Shown: positions 3,084 through 44,077, numbered from the stretch's first letter. The stretch is DNA of 64,000 nucleotides from Minisyncoccota bacterium (GCA_043780835.1 JAYWCB010000005.1:125945-189944); one strand, 5' to 3'. The notes: a model not told the origin generated them from the letters alone. Program-made: numbers and translations.

Positions 3084-3980
3084 CTACTCCAGCTGATTAT
3101 TAATATCAACTGCCGCAATAGCGGCCTGGCCCATAGCTACACTTATCTGATTAAGTGCGTTCGTAACGTCTCCAACTGCATAGATGCGCGGGATAGAGGT
3201 GCGGCAATGGTCGTCAACGACAAGCGCACCCTTTGAATCAACGTCGGGTTTGAACTGCTCGACAAGGTCGGCGCGCACCTTTGCACCCAGAGCTGAATAA
3301 ATGGTGTCGAACTCGAGCTCTTGGCCCCGTGCTTCAAACGCACATATTTTGTCTCCGTTCATAACAACTTTCGTCACAGGGTCTTCTACAAAATGTATTC
3401 CTTCAGCAGTTAACACCTCGCGCTCCTCATTTAGAATATGCATCGGTTTGCCGAGTGACAATATGGTTAGGTCTTTTGCGTAGCGTTTTAACAGCAGGCT
3501 CTCCCGCAAATTCGCTTCGCCATAAAATATGACGCCAACTTTTTTATCGATTACCTCGAACCCGTCACAAATGACGCAATGACGGATCAGGCCGCGCGCA
3601 ATCGCTGCCTCGACATTAGGCAAATCCGGTTCGATATCGACGACACCAGTAGCCAGGATTACAGTTCGCGATTCGAATGTTCCTGCCCCAGTGGTTGCCA
3701 AGAATGTGCCATCGACACTCCGTATTAAATCTCTTACAGCATCCGTAATGATCTCAGCGCCGTATTTTTGCGCCTGCCGGCGCATCCGTTTGACGAGGTC
3801 GGGACCAGAAATGCCGTCGGGGAAACCTGCGTGGTTATGTGATGTGGGGATGAGCGATGCGCGACTCTTGCCGTTGTCGATAACGAGGAAGCTCCGACGG
3901 AAGCGCGCGAGATATATGGCCGCGGTCAATCCTCCTGGACCTCCGCCAATAATGAGAGAATCCAGAATTTTCCTTTGCAT
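3084..3980 (-). CDS. thioredoxin-reductase-like NAD(P)/FAD-dependent disulfide oxidoreductase
   Basis: [17 protein letters not shown] motif, redox CxxC (HCVICDG), GxGxxA NAD motif, C-terminal AVGDV. Confidence 0.7.
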
Positions 3981-4091
3981 CCATCAATGATAATTGGCGT
4001 GGGTAAGTTTAATATGAAGCATTTCAACATGGGCAGACAGCGAAATGGAATTCATGCGCCTGAAAAGTTCCCAAAGCTGATCAGAATAAAA

Positions 4092-5252
4092 TCATCCAAA
4101 TGTAAACGTATACGCTTGCAATCCGGGATTGTTTACGATTATCTCGATTGTATGTTCACCATAATCTATGCCTTCGACTAATTTGTAGAGCCGGTTTTCT
4201 TGAATCGTCATCGTGCCGTCCGCAGATACATCCGATCCTCTCCCAACCGTTATCGGTTTACCATCCAACATAACTGTGACGTTCACAGGTTTAGCGGCCG
4301 TACCAACGAGGTACACATTCTTCGATTTGTATTTATAGACAATTTTTGCACCTATGGACGTGTTTTCCGCATATTCATTTTGTAAGTTCCACGTGCCATC
4401 GAGGTACAACTCATTTGAGTGAATAGTGGTGTGCACCGTAAGCTTTTGCGTGCCCACAGTGCCCACAGTGCCCACAGTGCCTCGTGTGCCGTTTCCAAGG
4501 TACTCATTTCGAGAAGCGCCAAAATATGTTTCTGGACTTTGGACTCCGTTATTGCTAACCGTGATCACACCTGCGGGGTTCACTGTGCCGGTGGGCACCG
4601 TATCTGGAAGTCCGAGCACTTGGTCGCGCTCTTTCAATGCTGTCTGAATTTTTTGCTCGGTCTTATCATAATTACCCTCGCCAAAATGGGTATCAGCGAT
4701 ATAGCCGTCAATATCGATCAGGTATTCCGCTGGCCAATACTGGTTTTGGTACGCCTGCCATGTCGCCATTTCATTATCCTGCATAACTGGATACTTGATC
4801 CCATATTGGCCGTTGACGGCTTTGAGTACATTGTTGTAATCCTTCTCGAATTCAAATTCCGGCGAATGGACACCGACTATGACAAGACCCTGATCTTTGT
4901 ATTTCTCGTACCACGCGTTCACATACGGCGCGGAGCGTAAACAATTGATGCACGTATACGTCCAGAAGTCGATAAGTACTACTTTCTTGCCGATTAGATC
5001 TTTCAGTTTGAATGGCTCCGAATTTATGAATTTTCCACCAGGAATAAGTTCGACTGCCGGAGATAAAGTCGAAGCTTTTTGTTTGAGTATCACGGCTCTC
5101 TCTTGAGTTGTCGGTGTTGACGAAGATGTGGCAGTACGAGCGACAGGTGTACCAGCGACCGCAGGTGGCTTCGTTGACTCAATATACCAAATTGCGCCGG
5201 TGATGAATATGACTGCAATCATCAATAAAGTGTTTTTGTTCGACAAATTCAT
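4092..5252 (-). CDS. membrane-anchored TlpA/ResA-like thioredoxin-fold protein with DipZ-C-terminal-like beta domain
   Basis: N-terminal TM, Thr/Ser-rich linker, thioredoxin motif VVLIDFWTYTCINCLRSAPYV..VIVGVHSPEFEFEKD, ~170-aa C-terminal beta-rich domain; start overlaps upstream stop (ATGA). Confidence 0.7.
   Translation of the reverse strand: MNLSNKNTLLMIAVIFITGAIWYIESTKPPAVAGTPVARTATSSSTPTTQERAVILKQKASTLSPAVELIPGGKFINSEPFKLKDLIGKKVVLIDFWTYTCINCLRSAPYVNAWYEKYKDQGLVIVGVHSPEFEFEKDYNNVLKAVNGQYGIKYPVMQDNEMATWQAYQNQYWPAEYLIDIDGYIADTHFGEGNYDKTEQKIQTALKERDQVLGLPDTVPTGTVNPAGVITVSNNGVQSPETYFGASRNEYLGNGTRGTVGTVGTVGTQKLTVHTTIHSNELYLDGTWNLQNEYAENTSIGAKIVYKYKSKNVYLVGTAAKPVNVTVMLDGKPITVGRGSDVSADGTMTIQENRLYKLVEGIDYGEHTIEIIVNNPGLQAYTFTFG
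4450..4487. repeat. 9-bp tandem repeat (gcccacagt x3 plus a degenerate unit) encoding GTVGTVGTVGT inside the TlpA-like CDS
   Basis: Directly visible tandem periodicity in sequence and protein. Confidence 0.6.
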
Positions 5253-6049
5253 ACGTCTTGTTTTTTGATACTCGACTCCGCCAAGTATGAAAGGAATCCT
5301 GGAATGATTGGCAATACACAGGGGCTCAGGAATGATGCAAGGCCAGCGAAGAGAGCGACTGCAAGATTAACAATGCTCAGCGATGAAATACTTCCACCTG
5401 CGCTCGTGCCTAAATGGAGAGCGGTGAGAATGCTCGTCAGAAATTGTACATTTGCTACTTTACTCAACTCGCCGGTGAAGATAAAAATGCCTATGATAAT
5501 GAGTACTACGCCAAAAAAGTACTCGACATACGTGAGCCATGCTCCAGCGCGATTGATGAACTCCTGTGCCTGATTCGTAAATGCGCCGACGATCAAAAAC
5601 GGAATGCCGAGACCAAGAGTATATGCGAAGAGAAGCAGGAATGCGCTGCTGGGGTTTACTGCCGCGAGAGCTAAAATTGCTCCGAGTGCCGCGCTTACGC
5701 AGGGTGTCCATCCGACAGCAAATGCCGCGCCGAAAACAAACGCAGTAATGTACCGCGACTTAAACTTTCTTCGTATAAGAATTTTGTGATCGCGCTGAAG
5801 AAAGCGCGGCGTGAATAGTCCGAGAACGAAGAGTCCGAACAGGATGATGATAATGCCGCCGATCCTACCCAGCCACATCTGTACGTCGTGAGAGGAATGT
5901 ACCAGAACTGTCCGTAGCATCACTCCTACAAGCGAAAACACGACGGAAAATCCGAGCACAAAAAATACACTGGTGAAGAAAACGCCCCAGTCTCTTTTTT
6001 CATGTGCGAGGGCGAATTCGGGCTCCATATGTATGAAGTGTACTACCAA
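5249..6049 (-). CDS. CcdA/DsbD-core-like thiol-disulfide transporter with apparently circularly permuted helix order (TM2-TM6 then TM1)
   Basis: GWTPC motif (FAVGWTPCVSAALG) precedes SFLSPCVLPIIPGFLSY motif, which lies at the extreme C-terminus; N-terminus aligns with CcdA TM2; table start is TTG at 6049 with in-frame stop just upstream; ATG (MEPEF..) at ~6028 more likely. Confidence 0.6.
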   Translation of the reverse strand: MVVHFIHMEPEFALAHEKRDWGVFFTSVFFVLGFSVVFSLVGVMLRTVLVHSSHDVQMWLGRIGGIIIILFGLFVLGLFTPRFLQRDHKILIRRKFKSRYITAFVFGAAFAVGWTPCVSAALGAILALAAVNPSSAFLLLFAYTLGLGIPFLIVGAFTNQAQEFINRAGAWLTYVEYFFGVVLIIIGIFIFTGELSKVANVQFLTSILTALHLGTSAGGSISSLSIVNLAVALFAGLASFLSPCVLPIIPGFLSYLAESSIKKQDV

Positions 6050-6063
6050 ATTTTAGATAGGCT

Positions 6064-6495
6064 ATGTATACTACGATGCATATGAGGCTCGGAACGCATG
6101 CTCAGATCCTCGTGCTTTTCGTGCTCGCGGCACTCATCGTAATGAGTCTTTGCGGAACAGTTCTCAATGTGAGAATGGAAAAAGATGCACAAACATCAAC
6201 ATCTGGATGCATGTTCAGCGCCATTGCCATTTGCACGCTGTCCCCCCTGGCGCATTTTGCTGTGGGGCAGAGTATGTTCACCGGGACAGCTTTCGATGCA
6301 GTTCGTGCACTTGCTCTCCTGTTAGCTGCGGCAGTTTTTGCAGTATATATAACAAGGCGGTTACTGTTTGATGACGTTCTCAATTTTCTAGAGACACGTC
6401 AAAGATTGCGTTTTGAGCACTCGCTCGCGATTGTCCATATAAGTTCGTTCCAGGAAGCTTTTTCACGCGGCATTCTAAATCCGAAGGTTTATTAA
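6064..6495 (+). CDS. hypothetical Cys/His-containing membrane protein
   Basis: ORF divergent from ccdA-like gene; hydrophobic segments; no recognisable domain. Confidence 0.3.
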   Translation: MYTTMHMRLGTHAQILVLFVLAALIVMSLCGTVLNVRMEKDAQTSTSGCMFSAIAICTLSPLAHFAVGQSMFTGTAFDAVRALALLLAAAVFAVYITRRLLFDDVLNFLETRQRLRFEHSLAIVHISSFQEAFSRGILNPKVY

Positions 6496-6563
6496 TTTCT
6501 CTTAACGAAAGACCCTCAATGAAGTTGAGCGGTTTTCTATTTATAAGGTCAAGAGAAATTAAC

Positions 6564-7082
6564 ATGAAAACAAAATACATTATTGGCTTCATTGTTGGAG
6601 CGGCGGTACTGCCGTTGCTCGCAATTGTATTAATCCCCACTCCGAAGCCGCAGGCGGCGAGACCTCTGATGGGCGAGAAAATGACTGATCAGACTGCCAC
6701 ACACATCGAACGTGGGGCGGCACATGCGGCATACAACTCGGATCCGCCGACGTCAGGCGTACATTGGGGAGATGGCGTCGCGGGAGCTGGCATTAAGACT
6801 GAACAGGTCCCTGATGAACTTGTGCTACACAGTATGGAGCACGGTGCGGCAGTTATTTGGTACAAGGCAGACCTTGCAAAAGACGAGATTGCGAAAATTC
6901 AGGGCGCGTTCGATGCAGCAAAGATCGCGAAGAAAATCATGGTGCCCCGTACAAATCTCGACGTACCCGTCGCGCTCGTCTCGTGGGGCTACCTGCTGAA
7001 GCAGAAAACGTTAGATCCTGCACAAATCACTGCATTCTTATTGTCGAACAATGGACGCGGTACGGAAAACTCACCAATCTAG
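6564..7082 (+). CDS. DUF3105-like membrane-anchored protein
   Basis: N-terminal TM then HIERGAAHAAYNSDPPTSGVHW...LHSMEHGAAVIWY; internal Met of table ORF 6519..7082 taken as start. Confidence 0.45.
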   Translation: MKTKYIIGFIVGAAVLPLLAIVLIPTPKPQAARPLMGEKMTDQTATHIERGAAHAAYNSDPPTSGVHWGDGVAGAGIKTEQVPDELVLHSMEHGAAVIWYKADLAKDEIAKIQGAFDAAKIAKKIMVPRTNLDVPVALVSWGYLLKQKTLDPAQITAFLLSNNGRGTENSPI

Positions 7083-7128: not shown

Positions 7129-7848
7129 ATGGAGACTGAATCGCAACAAAATAAATTACTCATTCCTGGCGCGATAGTCATTGCTGGATTTTTAATCGCT
7201 GGAGGACTTCTCATTGGACTTCGTGGAAACAGTTCGGCGCAAGTCGGTGCGACGCCTCCAACCGGCCAACAACCAACACAGGCGGCGGATGTTAGCAAGG
7301 TCAAGATCGCTGGTGAACCATATATTGGAAAGGAGGACGCTCCAGTCACGATGGCGTACTGGTTCGATTACCAGTGTCCGTTCTGTCAGCGCAACGAGAT
7401 TGATGTCATGCCGCAGCTCGTTAAAGAATACGTGGACACCGGCAAGGTTAAGATTGTATTCAAAGATTTCGAATTTTTAAGCGAGGATTCGCAACGACTT
7501 GGCAAAGTAGCGCGTGCTGTCTGGGATACTGCTCCGGATAAATTCTATCAATGGCACAAGGCTGTCTTTGAGAATCAGGGTAAGGAAAATACAGGCTGGG
7601 CAACAGACGCGAAGATCCTCTCAATTACGACGAGCGTACTTGGCGCAGCAGATGCGCAAAAAGTAATGGCACTGGCGATTAAGAATTCAGATGCGTATCA
7701 AAAAGAGATGGACGATGACAAAGCCGAAGGAGGGGCAATGGGCGTAAGCGGTACGCCAGGCACGATCATTGGTAAACAGTTTATCAATGGAGCTCAGCCA
7801 TACGCAGCATTTAAGCAAGTCATTGATCTTACCCTTGCGGGAAAGTGA
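7129..7848 (+). CDS. DsbA/BdbD-like thiol:disulfide oxidoreductase, membrane anchored
   Basis: N-terminal TM; thioredoxin-fold active site YWFDYQCPFCQRNE (CPFC); C-terminal GVSGTPGTIIG. Confidence 0.7.
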   Translation: METESQQNKLLIPGAIVIAGFLIAGGLLIGLRGNSSAQVGATPPTGQQPTQAADVSKVKIAGEPYIGKEDAPVTMAYWFDYQCPFCQRNEIDVMPQLVKEYVDTGKVKIVFKDFEFLSEDSQRLGKVARAVWDTAPDKFYQWHKAVFENQGKENTGWATDAKILSITTSVLGAADAQKVMALAIKNSDAYQKEMDDDKAEGGAMGVSGTPGTIIGKQFINGAQPYAAFKQVIDLTLAGK

Positions 7849-8384
7849 TTATGATTGCGAGCGCGTTCACGACAGTATTCAAAAAGTGGCAGTATGTGTT
7901 ACTTGCCGCTGCTGTGGCGCTGTTTATGACTGTGTTTGCAACATGGCTGCCGAATCTGCGACTCCTATTGTCGATTCTTGGAAATCCCGCAGTAGCTCTC
8001 GCCGACAAATTAACTTTGCCGGTTAATCTTGCCACGTCGATCACGACAAACTTCACGGTCCGTGCCGCTCTCTACATCATTGCGAGCGCCGTGCTCGCTG
8101 GTATCAATGTCTCGCTCATTACGTACTACATTAATAGACAGAGACGTGTATCAGGAGCTGGCGCGGCAGCGGGTGGGCTCGGACTCATAAGTGGAGTCCT
8201 TGGAGTCGGATGCGCTGCATGTGGCTCGCTGGTAGTCATGTCCGTATTCGGCACAGCGGCGGGTGCAAGCATCATCACCTTTTTACCGCTCAAAGGTGAA
8301 GAATTCGGAATCGCTGGAGTAACGCTGCTTGGTATTTCGGCGTACATTTCGGCGAAACAAATAACGAAGCCCCTTGTGTGCTAG
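7845..8384 (+). CDS. polytopic membrane protein with intramembrane CAAC motif, translationally coupled to dsbA-like gene
   Basis: ATGA overlap with upstream stop; ~5 TM; GVLGVGCAACGSLVVM; no DsbB/VKOR signatures. Confidence 0.5.
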   Translation: MIMIASAFTTVFKKWQYVLLAAAVALFMTVFATWLPNLRLLLSILGNPAVALADKLTLPVNLATSITTNFTVRAALYIIASAVLAGINVSLITYYINRQRRVSGAGAAAGGLGLISGVLGVGCAACGSLVVMSVFGTAAGASIITFLPLKGEEFGIAGVTLLGISAYISAKQITKPLVC

Positions 8385-8524: not shown

Positions 8525-8569
8525 AAACGACGGCCACATTTGGTAAGTGGCCGTCGTTTTATTTTTCTT
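8525..8569 (+). terminator. rho-independent terminator
   Basis: AAACGACGGCCAC..GTGGCCGTCGTTT stem then TATTTTTCTT. Confidence 0.5.
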
Positions 8570-11063: not shown

Positions 11064-11496
11064 AATCCATATCTGCTGACAGCAGTACCGAAACAAAATC
11101 ACTCTTATTGAGTGATTTTGCTTTCGTTCCGTAACGTCATCAGCCTTGCGTGTATGGTTACGCAACAAGACCTGGGTGATTCACGATTGTCTCAACGGGG
11201 CAACCTTGTTTCGGATCAGTCTTGCCAATGCAAATTGCAACATTGGTGCTGATTGTTTTTCTCGCGTTACTTACTCGTTTTACATCCGCAGGAACATGAG
11301 CCATCAGCCTGTGTGTGTTCGTGATTGCAGCTTGAACAAGTACCAGATTTTGTATCCATAGTAGTTTAATTAGGTTGATATAAGCACTTCACATAGTGTC
11401 ATGCCCGTAATGTGATTTACATGAGGAATACTCAGGCACGCGCGGAAGGATTAAATCCCATTTTCCTATCCTCATCGACGTTCATGTGTATCACAT

Positions 11497-11513
11497 ACCC
11501 CTAGGGGGTATAC
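11497..11513. promoter_or_regulatory. CsoR-type operator (perfect palindrome ATACCCCTAGGGGGTAT)
   Basis: 17-bp perfect inverted repeat ~8 bp upstream of csoR start; matches the GC-rich CsoR box type (ATACCC.A.GGGGGTAT) of Bacillus copZA operators; overlaps a TATACT -10-like hexamer. Confidence 0.6.
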
Positions 11514-11520
11514 TGTGTGA

Positions 11521-11793
11521 GTGAGAGCAGATATTAAGCGCAAAACTATACGAAGGCTGAAGTTGATTGAAGGACAGGTGCGTGGCCTTCAGCGTATGGT
11601 TGAAGACGAAAAGTATTGCGTCGACATCATTATCCAAGCCTCTGCCATCAAGGAAGCGCTTTCCGGTGTCAAAGATCTGGTACTGGAGAATCATCTTTCT
11701 ACTCACGTCATCGAGCAGATTAAGGCCGGCAAAGAAAAGAAATCTGTAGACGAGATCCTTAAGATCTATAAGTTGGCGCAAAAGAAAAGATAA
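11521..11793 (+). CDS. csoR: CsoR/RcnR/FrmR-family copper-sensing transcriptional repressor
   Basis: RLKLIEGQVRGLQRMVEDEKYCVDIIIQ..H..C pattern typical of CsoR; GTG start. Confidence 0.75.
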   Translation: MRADIKRKTIRRLKLIEGQVRGLQRMVEDEKYCVDIIIQASAIKEALSGVKDLVLENHLSTHVIEQIKAGKEKKSVDEILKIYKLAQKKR

Positions 11794-11797
11794 ATCT

Positions 11798-13930
11798 ATG
11801 GATCACTCACATCACAACCATGGCGAGCATCATACAGATTCGACTGGAGAATCGTATAGCTGCCCCATGCACCCGGGAGTTGTGCAAGACAAACCAGGTA
11901 TGTGCCCCGAGTGCGGCATGAATCTTGTGCCTATAAAAAAGAAGTCGGCTGCGGAAATGAGTGAAATTAAGCACGTTGGTCACAACACCTTTTCATTTTT
12001 GCAGAAGTTCTGGATTTCACTTGCGCTCACCATACCCATCTTCTTTTACTCAGAAATGGCGCTATCGGTCTTTGGAATTCACGGACCTGAGTTCCCCGGA
12101 TGGCAGTACGTACTACTCTTGCTCGGATCAGCTGTATTTTTTTACTGTGGATGGATCTTTCTTAGTAGTGCATACCGTGAGCTTCGGGCACGGATGCCGG
12201 GAATGATGACGCTGATCGCACTTGCGATCATTGCGGCATATCTGTATAGCTTCTTCTCTATCATCCTTGGAACGGGTCACGATTTGCTTTTTGAACTCTC
12301 AACACTGATAGCCATTATGCTTCTTGGCCACTGGATCGAGATGCGCTCGGTGCAAGGTGCCAAAGGAGCTCTTAAAGAACTAGCTAAACTTCTCCCCGAT
12401 ACCGCAGACGTAATCCGCAACGGTAAAACCGAAACTGTCTCACTGAGCGACCTGCGTGCAGGCGATAAAGTGCTCGTTAAACCGGGTGCAAAAATTCCGG
12501 CTGACGGACGAATTGTTGAAGGACAGTCAGAAATAAACGAGGCAATTATCACCGGAGAATCGAAACCTGTTTCTAGAACGACGGGAGCACAAGTTATAGC
12601 TGGCTCTATTAATGGAGACGGAAGCCTCACGGTTGAAGTAACACATATTGGCGACAAGACTTTTCTGGCAGGAATCATGCGACTTGTCGCTGATGCCGAA
12701 GCGTCTAAATCCAAATTGCAGATGCTCTCGGATCGAGCAGCGTTTTATCTCACCATTATTGCGATTGTCGCAGGAGTCACAACATTTATTGCATGGCTCT
12801 TGGCAAACGCAGGCGTAGGAACTGCTACAGAGCGTCTTGTCGCTGTTCTCGTCATTACGTGTCCTCACGCCCTGGGTCTAGCAATTCCGCTCGTTGCGTC
12901 GATCTCTACGACCATGGCTGCACGAAATGGACTCTTAGTGCGCCGCCGCATGGCTCTGGAAGAAGCCCGAAATATTAATACGGTTTTATTTGATAAGACA
13001 GGCACCCTGACTAAGGGAGAATTTGGCATAGACGCGATTGTTGCAAACGAAGGTGTTACGGAGGAGCAAGTCCTCAAAACGGCCGCCTCAGTCAATAGTC
13101 AATCAGAACATCCATTGGCTAGTGCAATGGTCAAAGAGGCGCAAAAAAGAAACATCGCTTTGATTGGTATAAAAGACTTTGCACGTATTGGAGGCCGCGG
13201 CGCAAAGGCGCAGATGGAAAATAGCGAAGTGTATGTTGGCAACGAATCTTTTCTTGCAGAAAATAATATACAAGTACCATCAGAGTATCAAAACAAAATA
13301 GATATCCTCTCAAAACAAGGAAAAACGGTGATATTTGTTGTCGTTGATAAAAAACTCATCGGTAGCATCGCGCTTGCCGACGTTATTCGAGAAGAGTCAC
13401 GAGAAGCAATTAAAACCCTTAAGGCTCTTGGTATTCGTACCGCTATGGTTACGGGCGATTCCGAAGATGTTGCCGCGTGGGTAGCCAAGGAAATAGGTAT
13501 TGATGAATATTTTGCAAAAGTCATGCCTGACCAAAAGGCAGAAAAAGTAAAACTTCTGCAAAGCAAAGGCCAAAAAGTAGCTATGGTCGGCGACGGGGTG
13601 AATGATGCGCCCGCGCTTACGCAAGCAGACCTTGGTATAGCAATCGGTGCAGGTACAAATGTTGCGATTGAGTCAGCGGGAATTATCCTCGTAAAAAGTG
13701 ATCCTCGCGATATCACGAAAATCTTTAACCTATCGCGCCTTACCTACAACAAGATGATCCAAAATCTTTTCTGGGCTACAGGCTACAACGTCGTGGCGAT
13801 TCCCTTGGCTGCCGGAACGCTCGCGTCGTACGGAATCATTCTGCAACCCGCACTTGCTGCCGTGTTTATGTCAGTAAGTACCGTGATAGTTGCATTCAAC
13901 GCAGTGCTATTGAGACGACAAAAAATCTAG
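11798..13930 (+). CDS. copB: copper-translocating P1B-type ATPase, CPH (CopB/P1B-3-like) subtype with His-rich and CxxC N-terminus
   Basis: N-terminus MDHSHHNHGEHH + YSCPMHPGV..CPECGM; TM CPH motif (ITCPHALGLA); DKTGTLT, TGD, GDGVNDAP motifs. Confidence 0.85.
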   Translation: MDHSHHNHGEHHTDSTGESYSCPMHPGVVQDKPGMCPECGMNLVPIKKKSAAEMSEIKHVGHNTFSFLQKFWISLALTIPIFFYSEMALSVFGIHGPEFPGWQYVLLLLGSAVFFYCGWIFLSSAYRELRARMPGMMTLIALAIIAAYLYSFFSIILGTGHDLLFELSTLIAIMLLGHWIEMRSVQGAKGALKELAKLLPDTADVIRNGKTETVSLSDLRAGDKVLVKPGAKIPADGRIVEGQSEINEAIITGESKPVSRTTGAQVIAGSINGDGSLTVEVTHIGDKTFLAGIMRLVADAEASKSKLQMLSDRAAFYLTIIAIVAGVTTFIAWLLANAGVGTATERLVAVLVITCPHALGLAIPLVASISTTMAARNGLLVRRRMALEEARNINTVLFDKTGTLTKGEFGIDAIVANEGVTEEQVLKTAASVNSQSEHPLASAMVKEAQKRNIALIGIKDFARIGGRGAKAQMENSEVYVGNESFLAENNIQVPSEYQNKIDILSKQGKTVIFVVVDKKLIGSIALADVIREESREAIKTLKALGIRTAMVTGDSEDVAAWVAKEIGIDEYFAKVMPDQKAEKVKLLQSKGQKVAMVGDGVNDAPALTQADLGIAIGAGTNVAIESAGIILVKSDPRDITKIFNLSRLTYNKMIQNLFWATGYNVVAIPLAAGTLASYGIILQPALAAVFMSVSTVIVAFNAVLLRRQKI

Positions 13931-24445: not shown

Positions 24446-24634
24446 ATGGCAATTCTCTCAAAACAAAGCGCTACAGAACTTCGCCGTATCATCAAGGAGG
24501 CTACAGGTCGCAACATTTCAGTCGGCGAAGCGTATGCCATCTGGCACTATCTTCTGAAACTACTACAGTTACTGTGGAGGATAGAAAAGAGACAAAAAAT
24601 CCAACCGCAATCAGATCAGTTGAGTCTTTTCTAG
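24446..24634 (+). CDS. small hypothetical ORF (62 aa) at edge of phage-derived segment
   Basis: ORF only; contains the ATAGAAAAGAG repeat. Confidence 0.2.
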   Translation: MAILSKQSATELRRIIKEATGRNISVGEAYAIWHYLLKLLQLLWRIEKRQKIQPQSDQLSLF

Positions 24635-26178
24635 AAAATACCAGGAATTCTCGAACGAACAGTAATTTCTGTATCGGGATCAATAATGTCATCCGGAAAC
24701 CGTCTCGGTGTACCGTACGATGTTGGACCACGCCAGGTGTCGCTACTACTGTATCCCATGAATTTTGTAAGATGAATGACGAGCATGGTGAGAGCGTCAC
24801 AGAGATCATCGTGATTCTCTAACCCAAAATTGACGGCTTGGTTAATGATCTCTTCGCATCCTCGATGGAATACTATCTGCCCATTTTGAATCAGTGCACC
24901 AATGCTCATAAGGCGCTGCTCCTTGCTTCCGTATATGTTGGGATAGAACTCAGATACCGGATAGCCTTGGTGATTGAGGTCTTGGAAGATATATACCTGC
25001 GCCTGCACTGCCTCTACAACGATTTGAGTTCTCAGGCCAGCAGCTCCCTTAGTCGATATTTCTTTTATCTTTTTAATAATATCTCCGAAGTCGAGTCGGT
25101 CGTTATAGTAGATGGGCGAGATATAAATCTTCGCCTTGTTGCCTGACCCATAGAGATGGCCATGCACGATCGCAGTAGGGTCAGTGCCTTCTTTGTTCTT
25201 CGTACCCGGATCAACGGCAGTCACAGACATCCGGTATCGGAGAACGGGATCATTTTTATCAGGGAGAACGTCGTAGTACGTAATCCAGTCGCGTTTGATG
25301 ATCTGGTCATCATCAGCGATCACTTGCAGCAGGTACTCGCGGAACCACGTCTTGTCATTACCAATGCGCTTACGTTCGGCTTCAATTTCTGCCATCGTCG
25401 GAAATTTACCTGGCCACATACTCTCGCCGTTGCGACCTATAAGCACATACTCTCGGTAGATGCCTGTAGTCATACCGTCGCCGATCTCTTGCTTGAGTCG
25501 CATGACAAGACAGTGTTCGTGTAAGACGTTCCCAATCACGATGAATCGTGTGCGTTTCGATCCGAGCGGCATAACCTCGCCTTTGAACCAGTTATATATC
25601 TTCTCTCGACCTTCTTTCGTACGTGCCGACTGAAGGTCCTCGGGGTCATCGATAATCACGAGATCTGGGCGATGTTGGAGATGCTTGATGCCTCGAATAG
25701 CCTCACTGACAGAGGCTACTGAGATACGTGCTCCAAGCTTAGTGAAGACTATGGTGGATGCGCCCCATGTGTCTGTTTCCTCCCGAAATGGCCCCAGCGT
25801 GCGCCGCAGAACCTCATTGTGCTCAAGAGCACCACGCAGGTTCATCATGTGCTGTTTTGCCTGGCTCTGGGTTTGAGCGACTATGAGCACGAACTTCTTT
25901 TGCTGGATACCCAAGATCGCCCACAGCACATACGAGAGTGTAAGCAGTGTACTTTTCGCACTGCCACGAAATGCGACAAGGCACAGTAGATTCCAGTCCG
26001 TCCGCTCGGTAAGTGCAAATATCTCATACTGGAACGGAGCTGTTTCGTACTCGACGTATTCTGCAAAGAAGATGTTGAAAAACCATAGGTGAGATCGTCG
26101 AGTCACGTAGCTTCGCACGAGTTTGTTCTTGCAGATCATTTCAAGAACGTCCTGCCGGAGTGTTTTATTGCTTTTCAT
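24631..26178 (-). CDS. phage terminase large subunit (Terminase_6-like ATPase + RNaseH-like nuclease)
   Basis: Deviant Walker A AFRGSAKST, Walker B LVIIDDPED, C-terminal nuclease Asp cluster (AVDPGTKNKEGTDPTAIV). Confidence 0.75.
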   Translation of the reverse strand: MKSNKTLRQDVLEMICKNKLVRSYVTRRSHLWFFNIFFAEYVEYETAPFQYEIFALTERTDWNLLCLVAFRGSAKSTLLTLSYVLWAILGIQQKKFVLIVAQTQSQAKQHMMNLRGALEHNEVLRRTLGPFREETDTWGASTIVFTKLGARISVASVSEAIRGIKHLQHRPDLVIIDDPEDLQSARTKEGREKIYNWFKGEVMPLGSKRTRFIVIGNVLHEHCLVMRLKQEIGDGMTTGIYREYVLIGRNGESMWPGKFPTMAEIEAERKRIGNDKTWFREYLLQVIADDDQIIKRDWITYYDVLPDKNDPVLRYRMSVTAVDPGTKNKEGTDPTAIVHGHLYGSGNKAKIYISPIYYNDRLDFGDIIKKIKEISTKGAAGLRTQIVVEAVQAQVYIFQDLNHQGYPVSEFYPNIYGSKEQRLMSIGALIQNGQIVFHRGCEEIINQAVNFGLENHDDLCDALTMLVIHLTKFMGYSSSDTWRGPTSYGTPRRFPDDIIDPDTEITVRSRIPGIF

Positions 26179-26614
26179 GGTCTTGTTTAAGTTGGCTTAG
26201 GCCTTCTTCCAAAACGAGCGATGAGAGCCGCAATGCTTCTTCTGCCGCAGCTTGCTCCTGTACGGTAAGGTCTTCGCGCGTATGGTGAATGTTTCCGCTT
26301 ATCTCCAGTTTCGATGAATACGCGGGGTGATGCGTCTTGAGCCACAGCGAAATGGCCGACATGTTTTTGTCTCGAATGGCAGATACTAAAAATCCTTCCG
26401 CGACATCATTTACTAGAAGTGACCCGTCGTAGATCGCTTCGTCCGCTGCCTTTGCGAATTCCGGATCTTCTTTGCGCCATCGATAATAGCTGGCGCGTCC
26501 GATGTTTGCTTTCGCGCATGCCATCTCGACGATAGGGGTGGACTTTAGATGTTCGAGTAGAGTTTGCTTGTCCCGGGCGACTCGTTTTTCAACTGCTGTT
26601 TGTTTCTGTTCCAT
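26165..26614 (-). CDS. terminase small-subunit-like HTH protein
   Basis: HTH segment IGRASYYRWRKEDPEFAKAADEAI typical of phage small terminase/HTH_23-like proteins; overlaps terL start by 14 nt. Confidence 0.5.
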   Translation of the reverse strand: MEQKQTAVEKRVARDKQTLLEHLKSTPIVEMACAKANIGRASYYRWRKEDPEFAKAADEAIYDGSLLVNDVAEGFLVSAIRDKNMSAISLWLKTHHPAYSSKLEISGNIHHTREDLTVQEQAAAEEALRLSSLVLEEGLSQLKQDHEKQ

Positions 26615-26615
26615 A

Positions 26616-27890
26616 TTATATTTTCTTCGCTTTGATACCCGTCAGTGCCTCGAAGCGGTTTTTGATGAGATCACAAAAGATCGGCTCTACCTCAACGAGA
26701 TATGCTGAGCGTTTGAGCTGTTCACAGGCCACCAATGTGCTTCCAGAGCCGCCGAACAAGTCCAATACAACATCGTTTACCTTTGAGCAGCGCTTCAGTG
26801 CCTTTTCGTGGAGCGTAGGTGGCTTTTCGGTTGGATGGGTGTATTGCTGTCCCGGCAGGCGTTTGACGAGCCAGATGTCGAGGAGGCTGAGAACATCTTC
26901 AATGAGGTCATTGCCGGTGCCGATTTCTTTATTCATTACTTCGGTAAGATTGTAATGATTCTTGGAAAGATAGGGCGATCCGCGAGTTCCATACACGCAT
27001 GGTTCGTACACCTTGTTGAATGCAACCTGAGGTACAACATTCTGATTATTTTTAATCCATAAACAGGTGCGCTTGTTCTCAATACCGAGCGAGTGATATA
27101 TGTCTTGAATCATTCCGACATAATTCTGGTCACACCAGTAGAAGTAGTGAGCGTCGCTCTTTGAAAAAGTAATAGCGTTTTGTATTGTCTTCTTTAGGAA
27201 TAGTTGGTATTCATCGAACGATTTATTGTCGTCTGTCTTGCCACCGTACTTTCCCTTAGTACCGACTCCCTTGTCGTAGCTGAGGTTTATATTAAAAGGT
27301 GGATCTGAATACGTGACATCCACCTTTGTATTGCCCAGAAGTTTTTTGAGAGACTCTGGATTAGTCGAGTCTGCGCAGATCAGACGGTGTCGCCCAAGCT
27401 GATACATTTCTCCTAGCTTCGTAACTGGTTTCTTTATCGCTGTGAGTGCCTCGTCCACGTCGAATGAGTCATCTTTTATTTCGAGTGCTTCATCCCAAAT
27501 GTTGTCGAGCTCCTCCGTGCTGAACCCGATGTCGGCAAGAAGGCTTGTATCGAACTCCCGTAGCTTCTCAATATCCCAGGCTCCGACATTTTTATTCAAT
27601 CGAATATTGAGTATCTTCTCTTTCTCAATATTAGGTATGTCGAGGAAGATCACAGGCACTTCTGTATACCCGAGGTCTTTTGCGATCTTGAGGCGAAAGT
27701 GACCCCCGATCACCGTGAACTTCCGCTTCGGTGCCTTGTTTACCAGAATCGGATCAACAAAACCATTCTGTGTGATGCTTTCTGTAAGTTGTGATATTGC
27801 CGAGGTATCCCACGTGCGCGGGTTATACGCAGCGGGCTTTAGAAGATTTATAGGTACGTACTCAATTTGGAGATTATGTAGTTTGGTCAT
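26616..27890 (-). CDS. ParB-like nuclease N-terminal domain fused to DNA N6-adenine/N4-cytosine methyltransferase
   Basis: N-terminal ParB/Srx motif (IIGGHFRLKIAKDLG), motif IV SDPPF then C-terminal motif I LDLFGGSGST (beta-class order). Confidence 0.75.
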   Translation of the reverse strand: MTKLHNLQIEYVPINLLKPAAYNPRTWDTSAISQLTESITQNGFVDPILVNKAPKRKFTVIGGHFRLKIAKDLGYTEVPVIFLDIPNIEKEKILNIRLNKNVGAWDIEKLREFDTSLLADIGFSTEELDNIWDEALEIKDDSFDVDEALTAIKKPVTKLGEMYQLGRHRLICADSTNPESLKKLLGNTKVDVTYSDPPFNINLSYDKGVGTKGKYGGKTDDNKSFDEYQLFLKKTIQNAITFSKSDAHYFYWCDQNYVGMIQDIYHSLGIENKRTCLWIKNNQNVVPQVAFNKVYEPCVYGTRGSPYLSKNHYNLTEVMNKEIGTGNDLIEDVLSLLDIWLVKRLPGQQYTHPTEKPPTLHEKALKRCSKVNDVVLDLFGGSGSTLVACEQLKRSAYLVEVEPIFCDLIKNRFEALTGIKAKKI

Positions 27891-43579: not shown

Positions 43580-44077
43580 ATGACCGTACCCAAAATCGTG
43601 AACATGGTGAACTCATGCGGTGAATGCCCGAATTACGGGTATTACAGTGGCCGGGTTTATCGATGCAATCTCGTCGAAGAGGCCGTGCTCGAAAAGGATC
43701 GGATCGCCCCCTTTTGTCCACTACCTGATTACCCGTCGCGGGTAATCAAGGAAATGGAGATTACCGTCCTCGGCCTGCAGAAGAGCGTCGACTATTCGTA
43801 CCCGTTTGCACTTTTTACATTCATCGCGGCAAAGCTCAAGCGTACAGTAAGTGCGAATGGTTCCACAATCAGGATCCCGTGTCGCGACGGCGAGGTGTGC
43901 TTGCAGTACGACCACATCCGGGATCTCACATTGAATCCGTTTAGCATCCGGTTTCTTGATGCAGACAAGACATACGTGCTATGCGTCGACGGAATCGCCG
44001 GACCATCTCTCAGTGAAGTTGTTCGCCGGGAGGGAATTGACGAAGAATTGTTCCACCAGATTTATCTCGCTGCATGA
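43580..44077 (+). CDS. hypothetical Cys-motif protein (165 aa)
   Basis: SD AAGGAG; CGECPNY..C..C motifs. Confidence 0.5.
   Translation: MTVPKIVNMVNSCGECPNYGYYSGRVYRCNLVEEAVLEKDRIAPFCPLPDYPSRVIKEMEITVLGLQKSVDYSYPFALFTFIAAKLKRTVSANGSTIRIPCRDGEVCLQYDHIRDLTLNPFSIRFLDADKTYVLCVDGIAGPSLSEVVRREGIDEELFHQIYLAA

Follow-up and report, generated by a model that had tools for sequence, protein, structure and literature searches.

Few classes of membrane protein couple thioredoxin-fold enzymes on the outside of the membrane to an electron source or sink, these being DsbB, VKOR, MauE and DsbD/CcdA/ScsB. DsbB carries two Cys pairs in two extracytoplasmic loops, VKOR (PF07884) a loop Cys pair and a CxxC at the outer end of TM4, and MauE (PF07291) a CXC in an outer loop. 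The proteins CcdA, DsbD and ScsB, the latter a DsbD-family membrane component, have 6-8 TM helices and membrane-embedded redox Cys that touch an extracytoplasmic thioredoxin-fold partner directly and are connected to the cytoplasmic side; CcdA itself is a 3+3 TM pseudo-repeat with a single Cys on TM1 and another on TM4. With the thioredoxin pool at about -270 mV and a DsbA-type site at about -120 mV, a relay from the cytoplasm runs downhill only toward the DsbA-type site. In MerP/MerT/MerF, a membrane Cys pair and a cytoplasmic tail Cys are combined with an extracytoplasmic CxxC partner. Recent work reported MauE, in 2026, as the third DsbB-type class, and found that roughly one fifth of the surveyed bacterial species were without any known oxidase (bioRxiv 10.64898/2026.03.05.709764). 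Earlier work showed that reductive Dsb-type systems, namely ScsB/ScsC and DsbD/DsbC, are induced by copper and that copper tolerance depends on them (PMC10907172). A further copper-induced reductive system, dsbDEG, is needed for copper tolerance as well (bioRxiv 10.1101/2020.08.17.255257).

The gene pair described here consists of a DsbA-like gene and, directly downstream, a gene for a small membrane protein that we call X. We think it plausible, though short of probable, that X is a membrane partner dedicated to the CPFC-containing DsbA-like protein and serves as a transmembrane thiol relay in a copper-stress island.

The DsbA-like/X operon and its copper neighbourhood

The window, which is the whole 64-kb stretch of DNA that was analysed, contains an operon in the order Up140, DUF3105, DsbA-like and X, closed by an intrinsic terminator (8525..8568, +) with a 13-bp stem followed by a U run (-23.2 kcal/mol, z-score -6.5). 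The first gene, Up140 (6064..6495, +), encodes a 143-aa two-TM protein of no known family, which is homologous across loci and has the motif C..C.M.P..H...WQSMF and the tail LQEAFSxGILNPK. It is followed by a gene for an anchored DUF3105 protein (6519..7082, +; Pfam DUF3105 E 2.2e-22), an accessory member of the module. The third gene (7129..7848, +) encodes a membrane-anchored DsbA-like thiol-disulfide oxidoreductase of 239 aa, the presumed extracytoplasmic partner of X, and the fourth, X (7851..8384, +), a 177-aa protein predicted to have four TM helices and belonging to an undescribed three-Cys family.

The DsbA-like identity proposed for 7129-7848 in a sequence-only reading of this DNA is borne out by Pfam matches to Thioredoxin_4 (E 4.5e-27) and DSBA (E 4.8e-14), with 95.7 bits against a curated Pfam cut-off of 23.2, and by a CPFC active site at codons 7375-7386. 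CPFC is present in 82 of 87 X-linked DsbA-like homologues, and this CP(aromatic)C site is as in Scs-type DsbA/DsbG-like partners. The single TM anchor of the protein is N-terminal, as it is in the X-linked partners, which show a mild positive-inside bias. The closest solved structure to the protein is BdbD (E 4.6e-23), with the ScsC structures 4gxz, 4xvw, 6nen and 6mhh ranking below at E ~3e-12. Like BdbD, it is a membrane-associated DsbA-type protein of single-membrane cells. The partner of BdbD, however, is BdbC, a DsbB homologue, whereas the DsbA-like protein is here paired with X, which is unrelated to DsbB.

The dsbA-like stop codon occupies 7846-7848, and the junction with X reads GGA AAG TGA TT ATG. 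This sequence rules out the ATGA overlap that the earlier reading had placed at the junction: X starts at the ATG at 7851, 2 nt past the stop, in agreement with an identical database protein, the gene call in a second assembly, and homologues. A GTG at 7845 shares bases with the TGA stop (GTGA), and X residues are numbered from this GTG throughout (179 aa). The two genes are tightly coupled without an ATGA overlap.

The operon lies in a metal island at 2 to 24 kb of the window, with a GC content below that of the rest of the window; mobile-element-type genes are found at 24.6-27.9 kb. The island includes TrxB, a split DipZ (TlpA-like plus CcdA), the X operon and CsoR-CopA, along with ClpB, DUF4396, a multicopper oxidase, DUF6629, HXXEE, DUF7282, ZIP and YibE/F. 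The divergent neighbours of the X operon are TrxB (3084-3980, -), a TlpA/DipZ-C-like thioredoxin protein (4092-5252, -) and CcdA (5249-6049, -; Pfam E 5.5e-22). Together these three (3084..6049, -) form a canonical reductive pathway, which accompanies X here without belonging to the conserved module. The genes csoR (11521-11793, +) and copA (11798-13930, +) form a transcription unit separate from the X operon, and ahead of them is a CsoR-type operator, TACCCCTAGGGGGTA (11496..11510, +). This is the sole CsoR box in the window; none was found before the window's X operon.

Neighbours within 8 kb of X were recorded for 80 species-representative GTDB loci (37-57% identity) and for six metagenome contexts. 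A DsbA-like gene was immediately upstream of X in 74/80 species loci and 6/6 metagenome contexts, mostly with a gap of 2-8 nt; X is thus translationally coupled to the DsbA-like gene in nearly every species that carries it. Some copper gene was present in 58/80 loci. By individual family, the counts were 44/80 for CopA, 22/80 for CsoR, 16/80 for cupredoxin, 14/80 for DUF305 and 12/80 for multicopper oxidase; Up140, upstream of the DsbA-like gene, was found in 36/80 loci and DUF3105 in 11/80. Only two of the 80 had CcdA near X, and genes for Trx, TrxB or Grx were not over-represented around it. Other neighbours carry a His-rich domain, HWHP. Matches to a 'Rhodanese' HMM near X turned out to be mostly a small His-rich domain distinct from rhodanese, and an argument built on rhodanese was dropped.

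CsoR-type palindromes (TACCC-N-GGGTA) precede csoR in 20 loci, and boxes of this type also start co-directional, closely packed gene strings that contain X. In L048 the order is CsoR box, copA, dsbA-like and X, and no gap exceeds 7 nt; in L059 and L060 the box is followed by Up140, DsbA-like and X; in L056 it heads an X-containing operon; and in L022, L046 and L065 it stands more loosely ahead of the X string. These operator motifs, seen in some loci only, suggest that X operons are regulated by copper. Thus the Cu-handling role that the sequence-only reading had offered as an alternative fits the context, given the copper genes in 58/80 loci and the CsoR operators heading X operons.

The X family, its topology and its three Cys

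Neither X nor 35 to 45 of its relatives matched any Pfam or NCBIfam model at E up to 10. In permissive Pfam and NCBIfam scans of the family, scattered noise alone was seen (DUF3180, DUF7502 and SLATT_1). A search of PDB sequences with the family profile returned nothing, nothing in the PDB resembled X by fold, and no homology to any known transporter family was found. A profile search of 1.84 billion representatives gave a family size of about 1750 clusters at E <=1e-3, and 1110 at <=1e-10, with clusters counted at 50% identity; in nearly all of them the length is 170-190 aa. Named sources, together with the 80 GTDB species loci, place the family almost exclusively in Patescibacteria, among them Saccharibacteria, Paceibacterota/Parcubacteria, Kaiserbacteria and Zambryskibacteria. 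No description of X was found in the literature on the family itself, on Patescibacteria Dsb systems or on DUF3105 and copper. On this sequence evidence, X is a genuine, large and conserved family that no paper known to us describes.

X has exactly three Cys, namely C123 (8211-8213), C126 (8220-8222) and C179 (8379..8381, +). The first two lie in the GCAACG motif (8208..8225, +), within the sequence GVGCAACGS, and C179, in the PxVC tail, is the final residue, directly ahead of TAG. The earlier claim that GCAACG is the only Cys pair, accompanied by a C-terminal Cys, is therefore correct, with the pair placed by the structural model in a broken helix. These Cys are kept in orthologues: among 262 full-length members, C123 and C126 are each present in 262/262, and C179 in 251/251 of those reaching the end. 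Exactly these three Cys and no others are found in 202/262 members; the motif is GCAACG in 186/262 and GCASCG in 32/262. Other strongly conserved residues are G151 (261/262), E153 (260/262), P148 (259/262) and N37 (248/262).

The AF2 model of X (pLDDT 81) has long helices at 15-45, 72-102 and 152-174, and a broken helix, TM3, made of half-helices 107-119 and 127-145 with the CxxC in the break at 120-126. Model confidence is lowest at the CxxC, with pLDDT <50 for residues 121-124. The distribution of charge across the family obeys the positive-inside rule: family-wide, the mean K+R is 2.9 for the N-terminus, 3.6 for loop 2 and 2.7 for the C-terminal tail, as compared with 2.1 for loop 1, which has 35 residues, and 0.44 for loop 3, which is net negative.

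Domain fusions also bear on the topology. A paralogous family, X2, aligns with X at an hhalign probability of 98.7% (E 2e-16) with all three Cys positions matched, and often begins with an N-terminal zinc-ribbon domain; X2 is also found with an outer CC..C..H domain. Three clusters, of 69-82% identity and each represented on several contigs, have X itself joined at its C-terminus to a class I SAM-dependent methyltransferase, a domain without Cys. Because the zinc ribbon of X2 and the methyltransferase of X are both expected to be cytoplasmic, X would be N-in and C-in. The two kinds of fusion are independent of each other, and agree with the topology based on charge.

Together, charge bias, fusions and AF2 secondary structure indicate that X has four TM helices with both termini inside. 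The earlier description of a protein with about five TM helices holds as to a membrane protein but not as to the helix count, four TM helices plus short surface helices being found. A re-entrant-hairpin topology, with C179 outside, was considered; charge bias and the fusions to cytoplasmic domains speak against it. In the favoured model, the CxxC would lie inside the membrane, in its middle to outer half, and C179 is predicted to be cytoplasmic because charge bias and the conserved fusions put both ends of X inside. The outward-facing loops, 1 and 3, have no Cys. The outer face does have conserved polar residues, namely N37, K55, S65-N69 and LPLxGxE.

A possible reductive relay and its alternatives

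A thiol relay feeding the DsbA-like protein would most likely carry reducing equivalents, by analogy with the role of CcdA/ScsB in copper stress. In such a relay, a cytoplasmic reductant, thioredoxin or glutaredoxin, would reduce the tail Cys, or a mixed disulfide between the tail Cys and the CxxC, and reducing equivalents would go from the tail Cys to the intramembrane C123-C126. This pair would in turn reduce the CPFC site of the DsbA-like protein docked at the polar outer face of X, i.e., at N37, K55, SITTNF and LPLxGxE, and the reduced DsbA-like protein would then repair copper-catalysed wrong disulfides or hold Cu(I). Gene pairing, Cys invariance, the indicators of topology and the copper setting are observations; what we infer is that X and the DsbA-like protein touch directly, which way the flow runs and that C179 acts as a shuttle.

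We favour X as a minimal functional analogue of CcdA/ScsB, one that would hold the CPFC protein in its reduced state, because of its cysteine layout, the redox thermodynamics and the known copper-induced reductive systems. The reductive relay is also supported by the operon of the lineage in which X is fused to the methyltransferase, which encodes an ArsR-type regulator, a CPYC glutaredoxin-like protein, a YgaP-like TM protein, a DsbA-like protein (CPFC) and the X::methyltransferase fusion; by its sequence, the cytoplasmic CPYC protein is a possible electron donor in that lineage.

The architecture of X, in which a Cys predicted to be cytoplasmic and a CxxC in the membrane are combined with a CPFC partner outside, is compatible with electron transfer of the CcdA/DsbD type, from cytoplasmic thioredoxin to an outer thioredoxin-fold protein. 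X would share with CcdA, DsbD and ScsB the membrane-embedded redox Cys contacted directly by an extracytoplasmic thioredoxin-fold partner, and the connection to the cytoplasmic side. ScsB/ScsC and dsbDEG are induced by copper; X is found in copper islands, and its partner resembles ScsC. X is, however, unrelated to these proteins by sequence or fold (no match to PF02683 or PF13386), and lacks the DsbD similarity that ScsB has. It has four predicted TM helices rather than 6-8, both CxxC Cys on one helix rather than single Cys on TM1 and TM4, and an additional Cys in the tail, and it lacks periplasmic alpha and gamma domains. In sum, X would act most like CcdA/ScsB with ScsC, yet is no member of that family.

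Some observations run against the reductive relay. The DsbA-like protein is nearest in sequence to the oxidase BdbD and not to ScsC, and the surroundings of X show no excess of genes for Trx, TrxB and glutaredoxin. Confidence in the AF2 model reaches its minimum just at the CxxC. The C179 tail is about seven residues long, and its reach to the intramembrane Cys pair is presumed; a lone tail Cys is unusual among known electron transporters. In the window, moreover, a second reductive route may be redundant because the CcdA/TlpA-like pair already adjoins.

The main rival to the reductive thiol relay is a Mer-like relay of Cu(I) or another soft metal(loid), which we consider unlikely but worth weighing. 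In this scheme the thiophilic metal would pass from the CPFC protein to the CxxC of X, then to the tail Cys and a cytoplasmic acceptor, or would follow the reverse route to load extracytoplasmic cuproproteins; ATP would not be needed either way. The layout of X resembles that of MerP/MerT/MerF, and MerT/MerF/MerC with MerP likewise have a TM-helix Cys pair, a cytoplasmic Cys, an extracytoplasmic CxxC partner and a place in a metal-resistance island. However, TM1 of MerT/MerF/MerC has a vicinal CC where X has a CxxC, their cytoplasmic Cys come as a pair where X has a single tail Cys, the Mer partner has the HMA fold while that of X has the thioredoxin fold, and X has no sequence similarity to MerT/F/C. 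Beside the paired Cys of MerT and MerF, a lone tail Cys would also offer a poor site for a metal.

The neighbourhood, with CopA, CsoR, multicopper oxidase, cupredoxin, DUF305, the Cys/Met/His-bearing Up140 and HWHP, consists mostly of metal proteins, as a metal relay would lead one to expect, but import of copper inside a resistance island would need a special rationale. The Cys-rich cytoplasmic zinc ribbon and the outer CC..C..H domain of X2 point in the same direction as the neighbourhood, as does the joining of X to a cytoplasmic methyltransferase under an ArsR-type regulator, although the Cys-free methyltransferase domain counts on the other side. To our knowledge, all characterised membrane proteins encoded next to a DsbA-type gene are redox partners and none are metal carriers, which argues against the metal relay. 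In its favour, ScsC-type proteins are reported to bind Cu(I) very tightly (PMC8900818; PMC10907172).

The sequence-only reading had put forward X as the re-oxidation partner of the DsbA-like protein in DNA with no visible DsbB or VKOR. As to the window this absence stands: neither was found in the 64 kb by searches that included a DsbB HMM built from Patescibacteria, and DUF6629 is the only other multi-TM ORF of the window with a CxxC. It does not extend to the X family: 11/80 loci have a canonical DsbB (PF02600), accompanied by a DsbA of its own (active site CEAC or CPAC), directly next to the DsbA-like/X pair, and such a DsbB-DsbA pair also adjoins the X pair in two of the six metagenome contexts. 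Because of this co-location X is not simply a DsbB substitute, and the coexistence argues, from gene content, for a role distinct from oxidation. The side-by-side occurrence of X and DsbB-DsbA parallels that of DsbA/DsbB and DsbC/DsbD in E. coli, and of Dsb and Scs in Salmonella.

An oxidase of DsbB/VKOR/MauE type, with X re-oxidising the DsbA-like protein and delivering electrons to a membrane or other acceptor, is thus improbable, and is the least supported of the ideas when set against the reductive relay and the Cu(I) relay. It does have attractions. The gene order, DsbA-like and then a membrane CxxC protein, mimics dsbA-dsbB or VKOR pairs, and X, like DsbB, VKOR and MauE, is a small membrane protein, of four helices by prediction, that is encoded beside a DsbA-type gene and carries its CxxC close to the membrane's outer half. 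The nearest relative of the DsbA-like protein among solved structures is an oxidase, BdbD, and the window, which is without DsbB or VKOR, has a separate CcdA reductive pair, to which X could be the oxidative half. Further, DsbB-type classes are still emerging, MauE being an example (bioRxiv 10.64898/2026.03.05.709764).

The cysteines of X tell against an oxidase. Unlike DsbB, with its two loop pairs, X has no Cys in loop 1 or loop 3. The invariant Cys predicted to be cytoplasmic, which DsbB does not share, would be left unexplained: an oxidase could do without it, but a relay that exchanges with the reducing cytoplasm, in either direction, could not, so C179 disfavours the oxidase. The loci in which DsbB and its own DsbA adjoin the X pair also count against this idea, as does the lack of an evident electron acceptor. 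Nor does X resemble DsbB, VKOR or MauE in sequence or fold. Aligned with 11 Patescibacteria DsbB sequences, X gave an hhalign probability of 0.2%, and PF02600 and other Pfam models gave no match to 35 X members even at E up to 10. X is likewise without similarity to VKOR, and differs from MauE in having no Pfam match and in its intramembrane CxxC motif. The proposal of a membrane partner that is neither DsbB nor VKOR survives this comparison, given the DsbA-like gene upstream of X in most loci and the unrelatedness of X to both; what fails is the replacement of DsbB, given DsbB beside X in 11/80 loci, outward loops free of Cys and a third Cys placed in the cytoplasm.

Least likely of all is a non-catalytic X, i.e., a client whose Cys the DsbA-like enzyme oxidises or protects, an anchor, or a copper- or redox-sensing subunit: tight gene coupling shows co-function only, and the polar outer face could serve docking or sensing, but DsbA clients have their Cys in exported regions rather than in the membrane core or cytoplasm, the X family has no output or signalling domain, and strict 1:1 pairing with an invariant CxxC is typical of redox partners.

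Significance for Patescibacteria

By sequence, Cys pattern and fold, X stands outside DsbB, VKOR, MauE, CcdA/DsbD and MerT/F/C. We tentatively suggest, with slightly less than an even chance of being right, that X represents a new class of membrane thiol relay, the smallest known, with three Cys, one on a flexible cytoplasmic tail and two forming a CxxC in a broken TM helix, that links the cytoplasm to a thioredoxin-fold protein outside, takes part in copper defence across the CPR and may move electrons or Cu(I). If so, X would be a fifth solution beside DsbB, VKOR, MauE and DsbD/CcdA, one that uses no ATP, and, being compact and unrelated to the rest, would bring in a new mechanism built on three Cys. 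Names would also become available for the large uncharacterised families of the copper islands, i.e., X, X2, Up140 and the HWHP domain, and such a relay would help explain how thiols and copper are managed in the envelope of the ultra-small, mostly fermentative Patescibacteria.

Genes around the DsbA-like/X operon

In 36 of the 80 species-level loci, the operon encoding the DsbA-like oxidoreductase and X, the three-Cys, 4-TM membrane protein, opens with the gene for Up140, a conserved protein, some 140 aa long and with two TM segments, that falls in no Pfam family (window 6064-6495, + strand; in other X-bearing loci, L001 4781-5203, L003 4775-5197, L005 4816-5190, L007 4444-4854 and L009 4715-5224). 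The Cys, Met and His residues of its outer motif, C..C.M.P..H...WQSMF, look from the sequence like a candidate Cu(I) site, and its C-terminal sequence is LQEAFSxGILNPK. Divergent from the X operon, with start codons only ~15-35 bp apart, are the genes of a reductive pathway of the split DipZ type (window 3084-6049, - strand). Here the CcdA gene (5249-6049, -) overlaps the start of the gene for a TlpA/Redoxin plus Thioredoxin_10 protein (4092-5252, -), and the thioredoxin reductase gene (3084-3980, -) lies just 3' of the latter.

On the other side, the X gene lies directly 5' of a gene for a small, anchored, His-rich domain, here called HWHP, in ~23 of the 80 loci. The HWHP domain has no Pfam family and carries the motif HWHP...H.P.HTH...IH.EF...WGKD. 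It is found unfused (L010 7231-7686, L011 9080-9502, L091 4467-4994) and, in three loci, joined to a CEAC-type DsbA (L028 2493-3686, L030 8576-9769, L037 8563-9768). The protein is probably a metal-binding envelope protein.

Other redox proteins in X-bearing loci

Patescibacteria copper islands contain canonical DsbB genes, and every one of these has its own DsbA of the CEAC or CPAC type (L005 6581-7762, L007 6551-7634 and 11 of loci L010-L089). The Patescibacteria with these DsbB-DsbA islands are generally considered to lack quinone biosynthesis. X also shares a copper island with a MauE fusion protein that carries a heavy-metal-binding domain (HMBD) (L009 10150-10761); MauE was recently proposed to be a DsbB-type oxidase (bioRxiv 10.64898/2026.03.05.709764).

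In a further lineage (proteins P0244, P0329 and P0330), X is fused to a class I SAM methyltransferase that is without Cys. Alongside the fusion, the operon (L093 4140-7155; also L094) encodes an ArsR-type regulator, a protein that combines DUF302 with a CPYC glutaredoxin, a YgaP-like TM protein and a DsbA-like protein with a CPFC site. The L093 contig is GC-rich and apparently comes from a source other than Patescibacteria.

The metal-resistance region and the distribution of X

The window holds a perfect CsoR-type operator, TACCCCTAGGGGGTA, at 11496-11510, with csoR 11 nt downstream, and a second palindrome, TACCCGTCGCGGGTA, at 43730-43744, in or near an ORF (43580-44077) that has a CxxC motif at its start. 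GC content is ~0.45-0.48 in the metal-resistance region versus 0.50-0.53 elsewhere in the window (1-33000 compared with 34000-64000), and genes at the region's border (24631-27890, -) encode a ParB-N6/N4 DNA methylase and a transposase-HTH-similar protein. The lower GC and these bordering genes suggest that the region is a horizontally acquired island. In L003 and L009, the corresponding islands are flanked by serine recombinases.

X also occurs in sequences with other taxon labels. A 5.5-Mb chromosome labelled Alphaproteobacteria (L025; OZ245842.1, 4263315-4279857) carries an X gene of 48% identity, accompanied by a DsbA-like gene, CcdA, a multicopper oxidase and a DsbB/DsbA pair. A few further X loci bear the labels Gammaproteobacteria, Pseudomonadales or Bdellovibrionales. 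The presence of X in L025 and in these loci could reflect mis-binning, or horizontal transfer outward from Patescibacteria.
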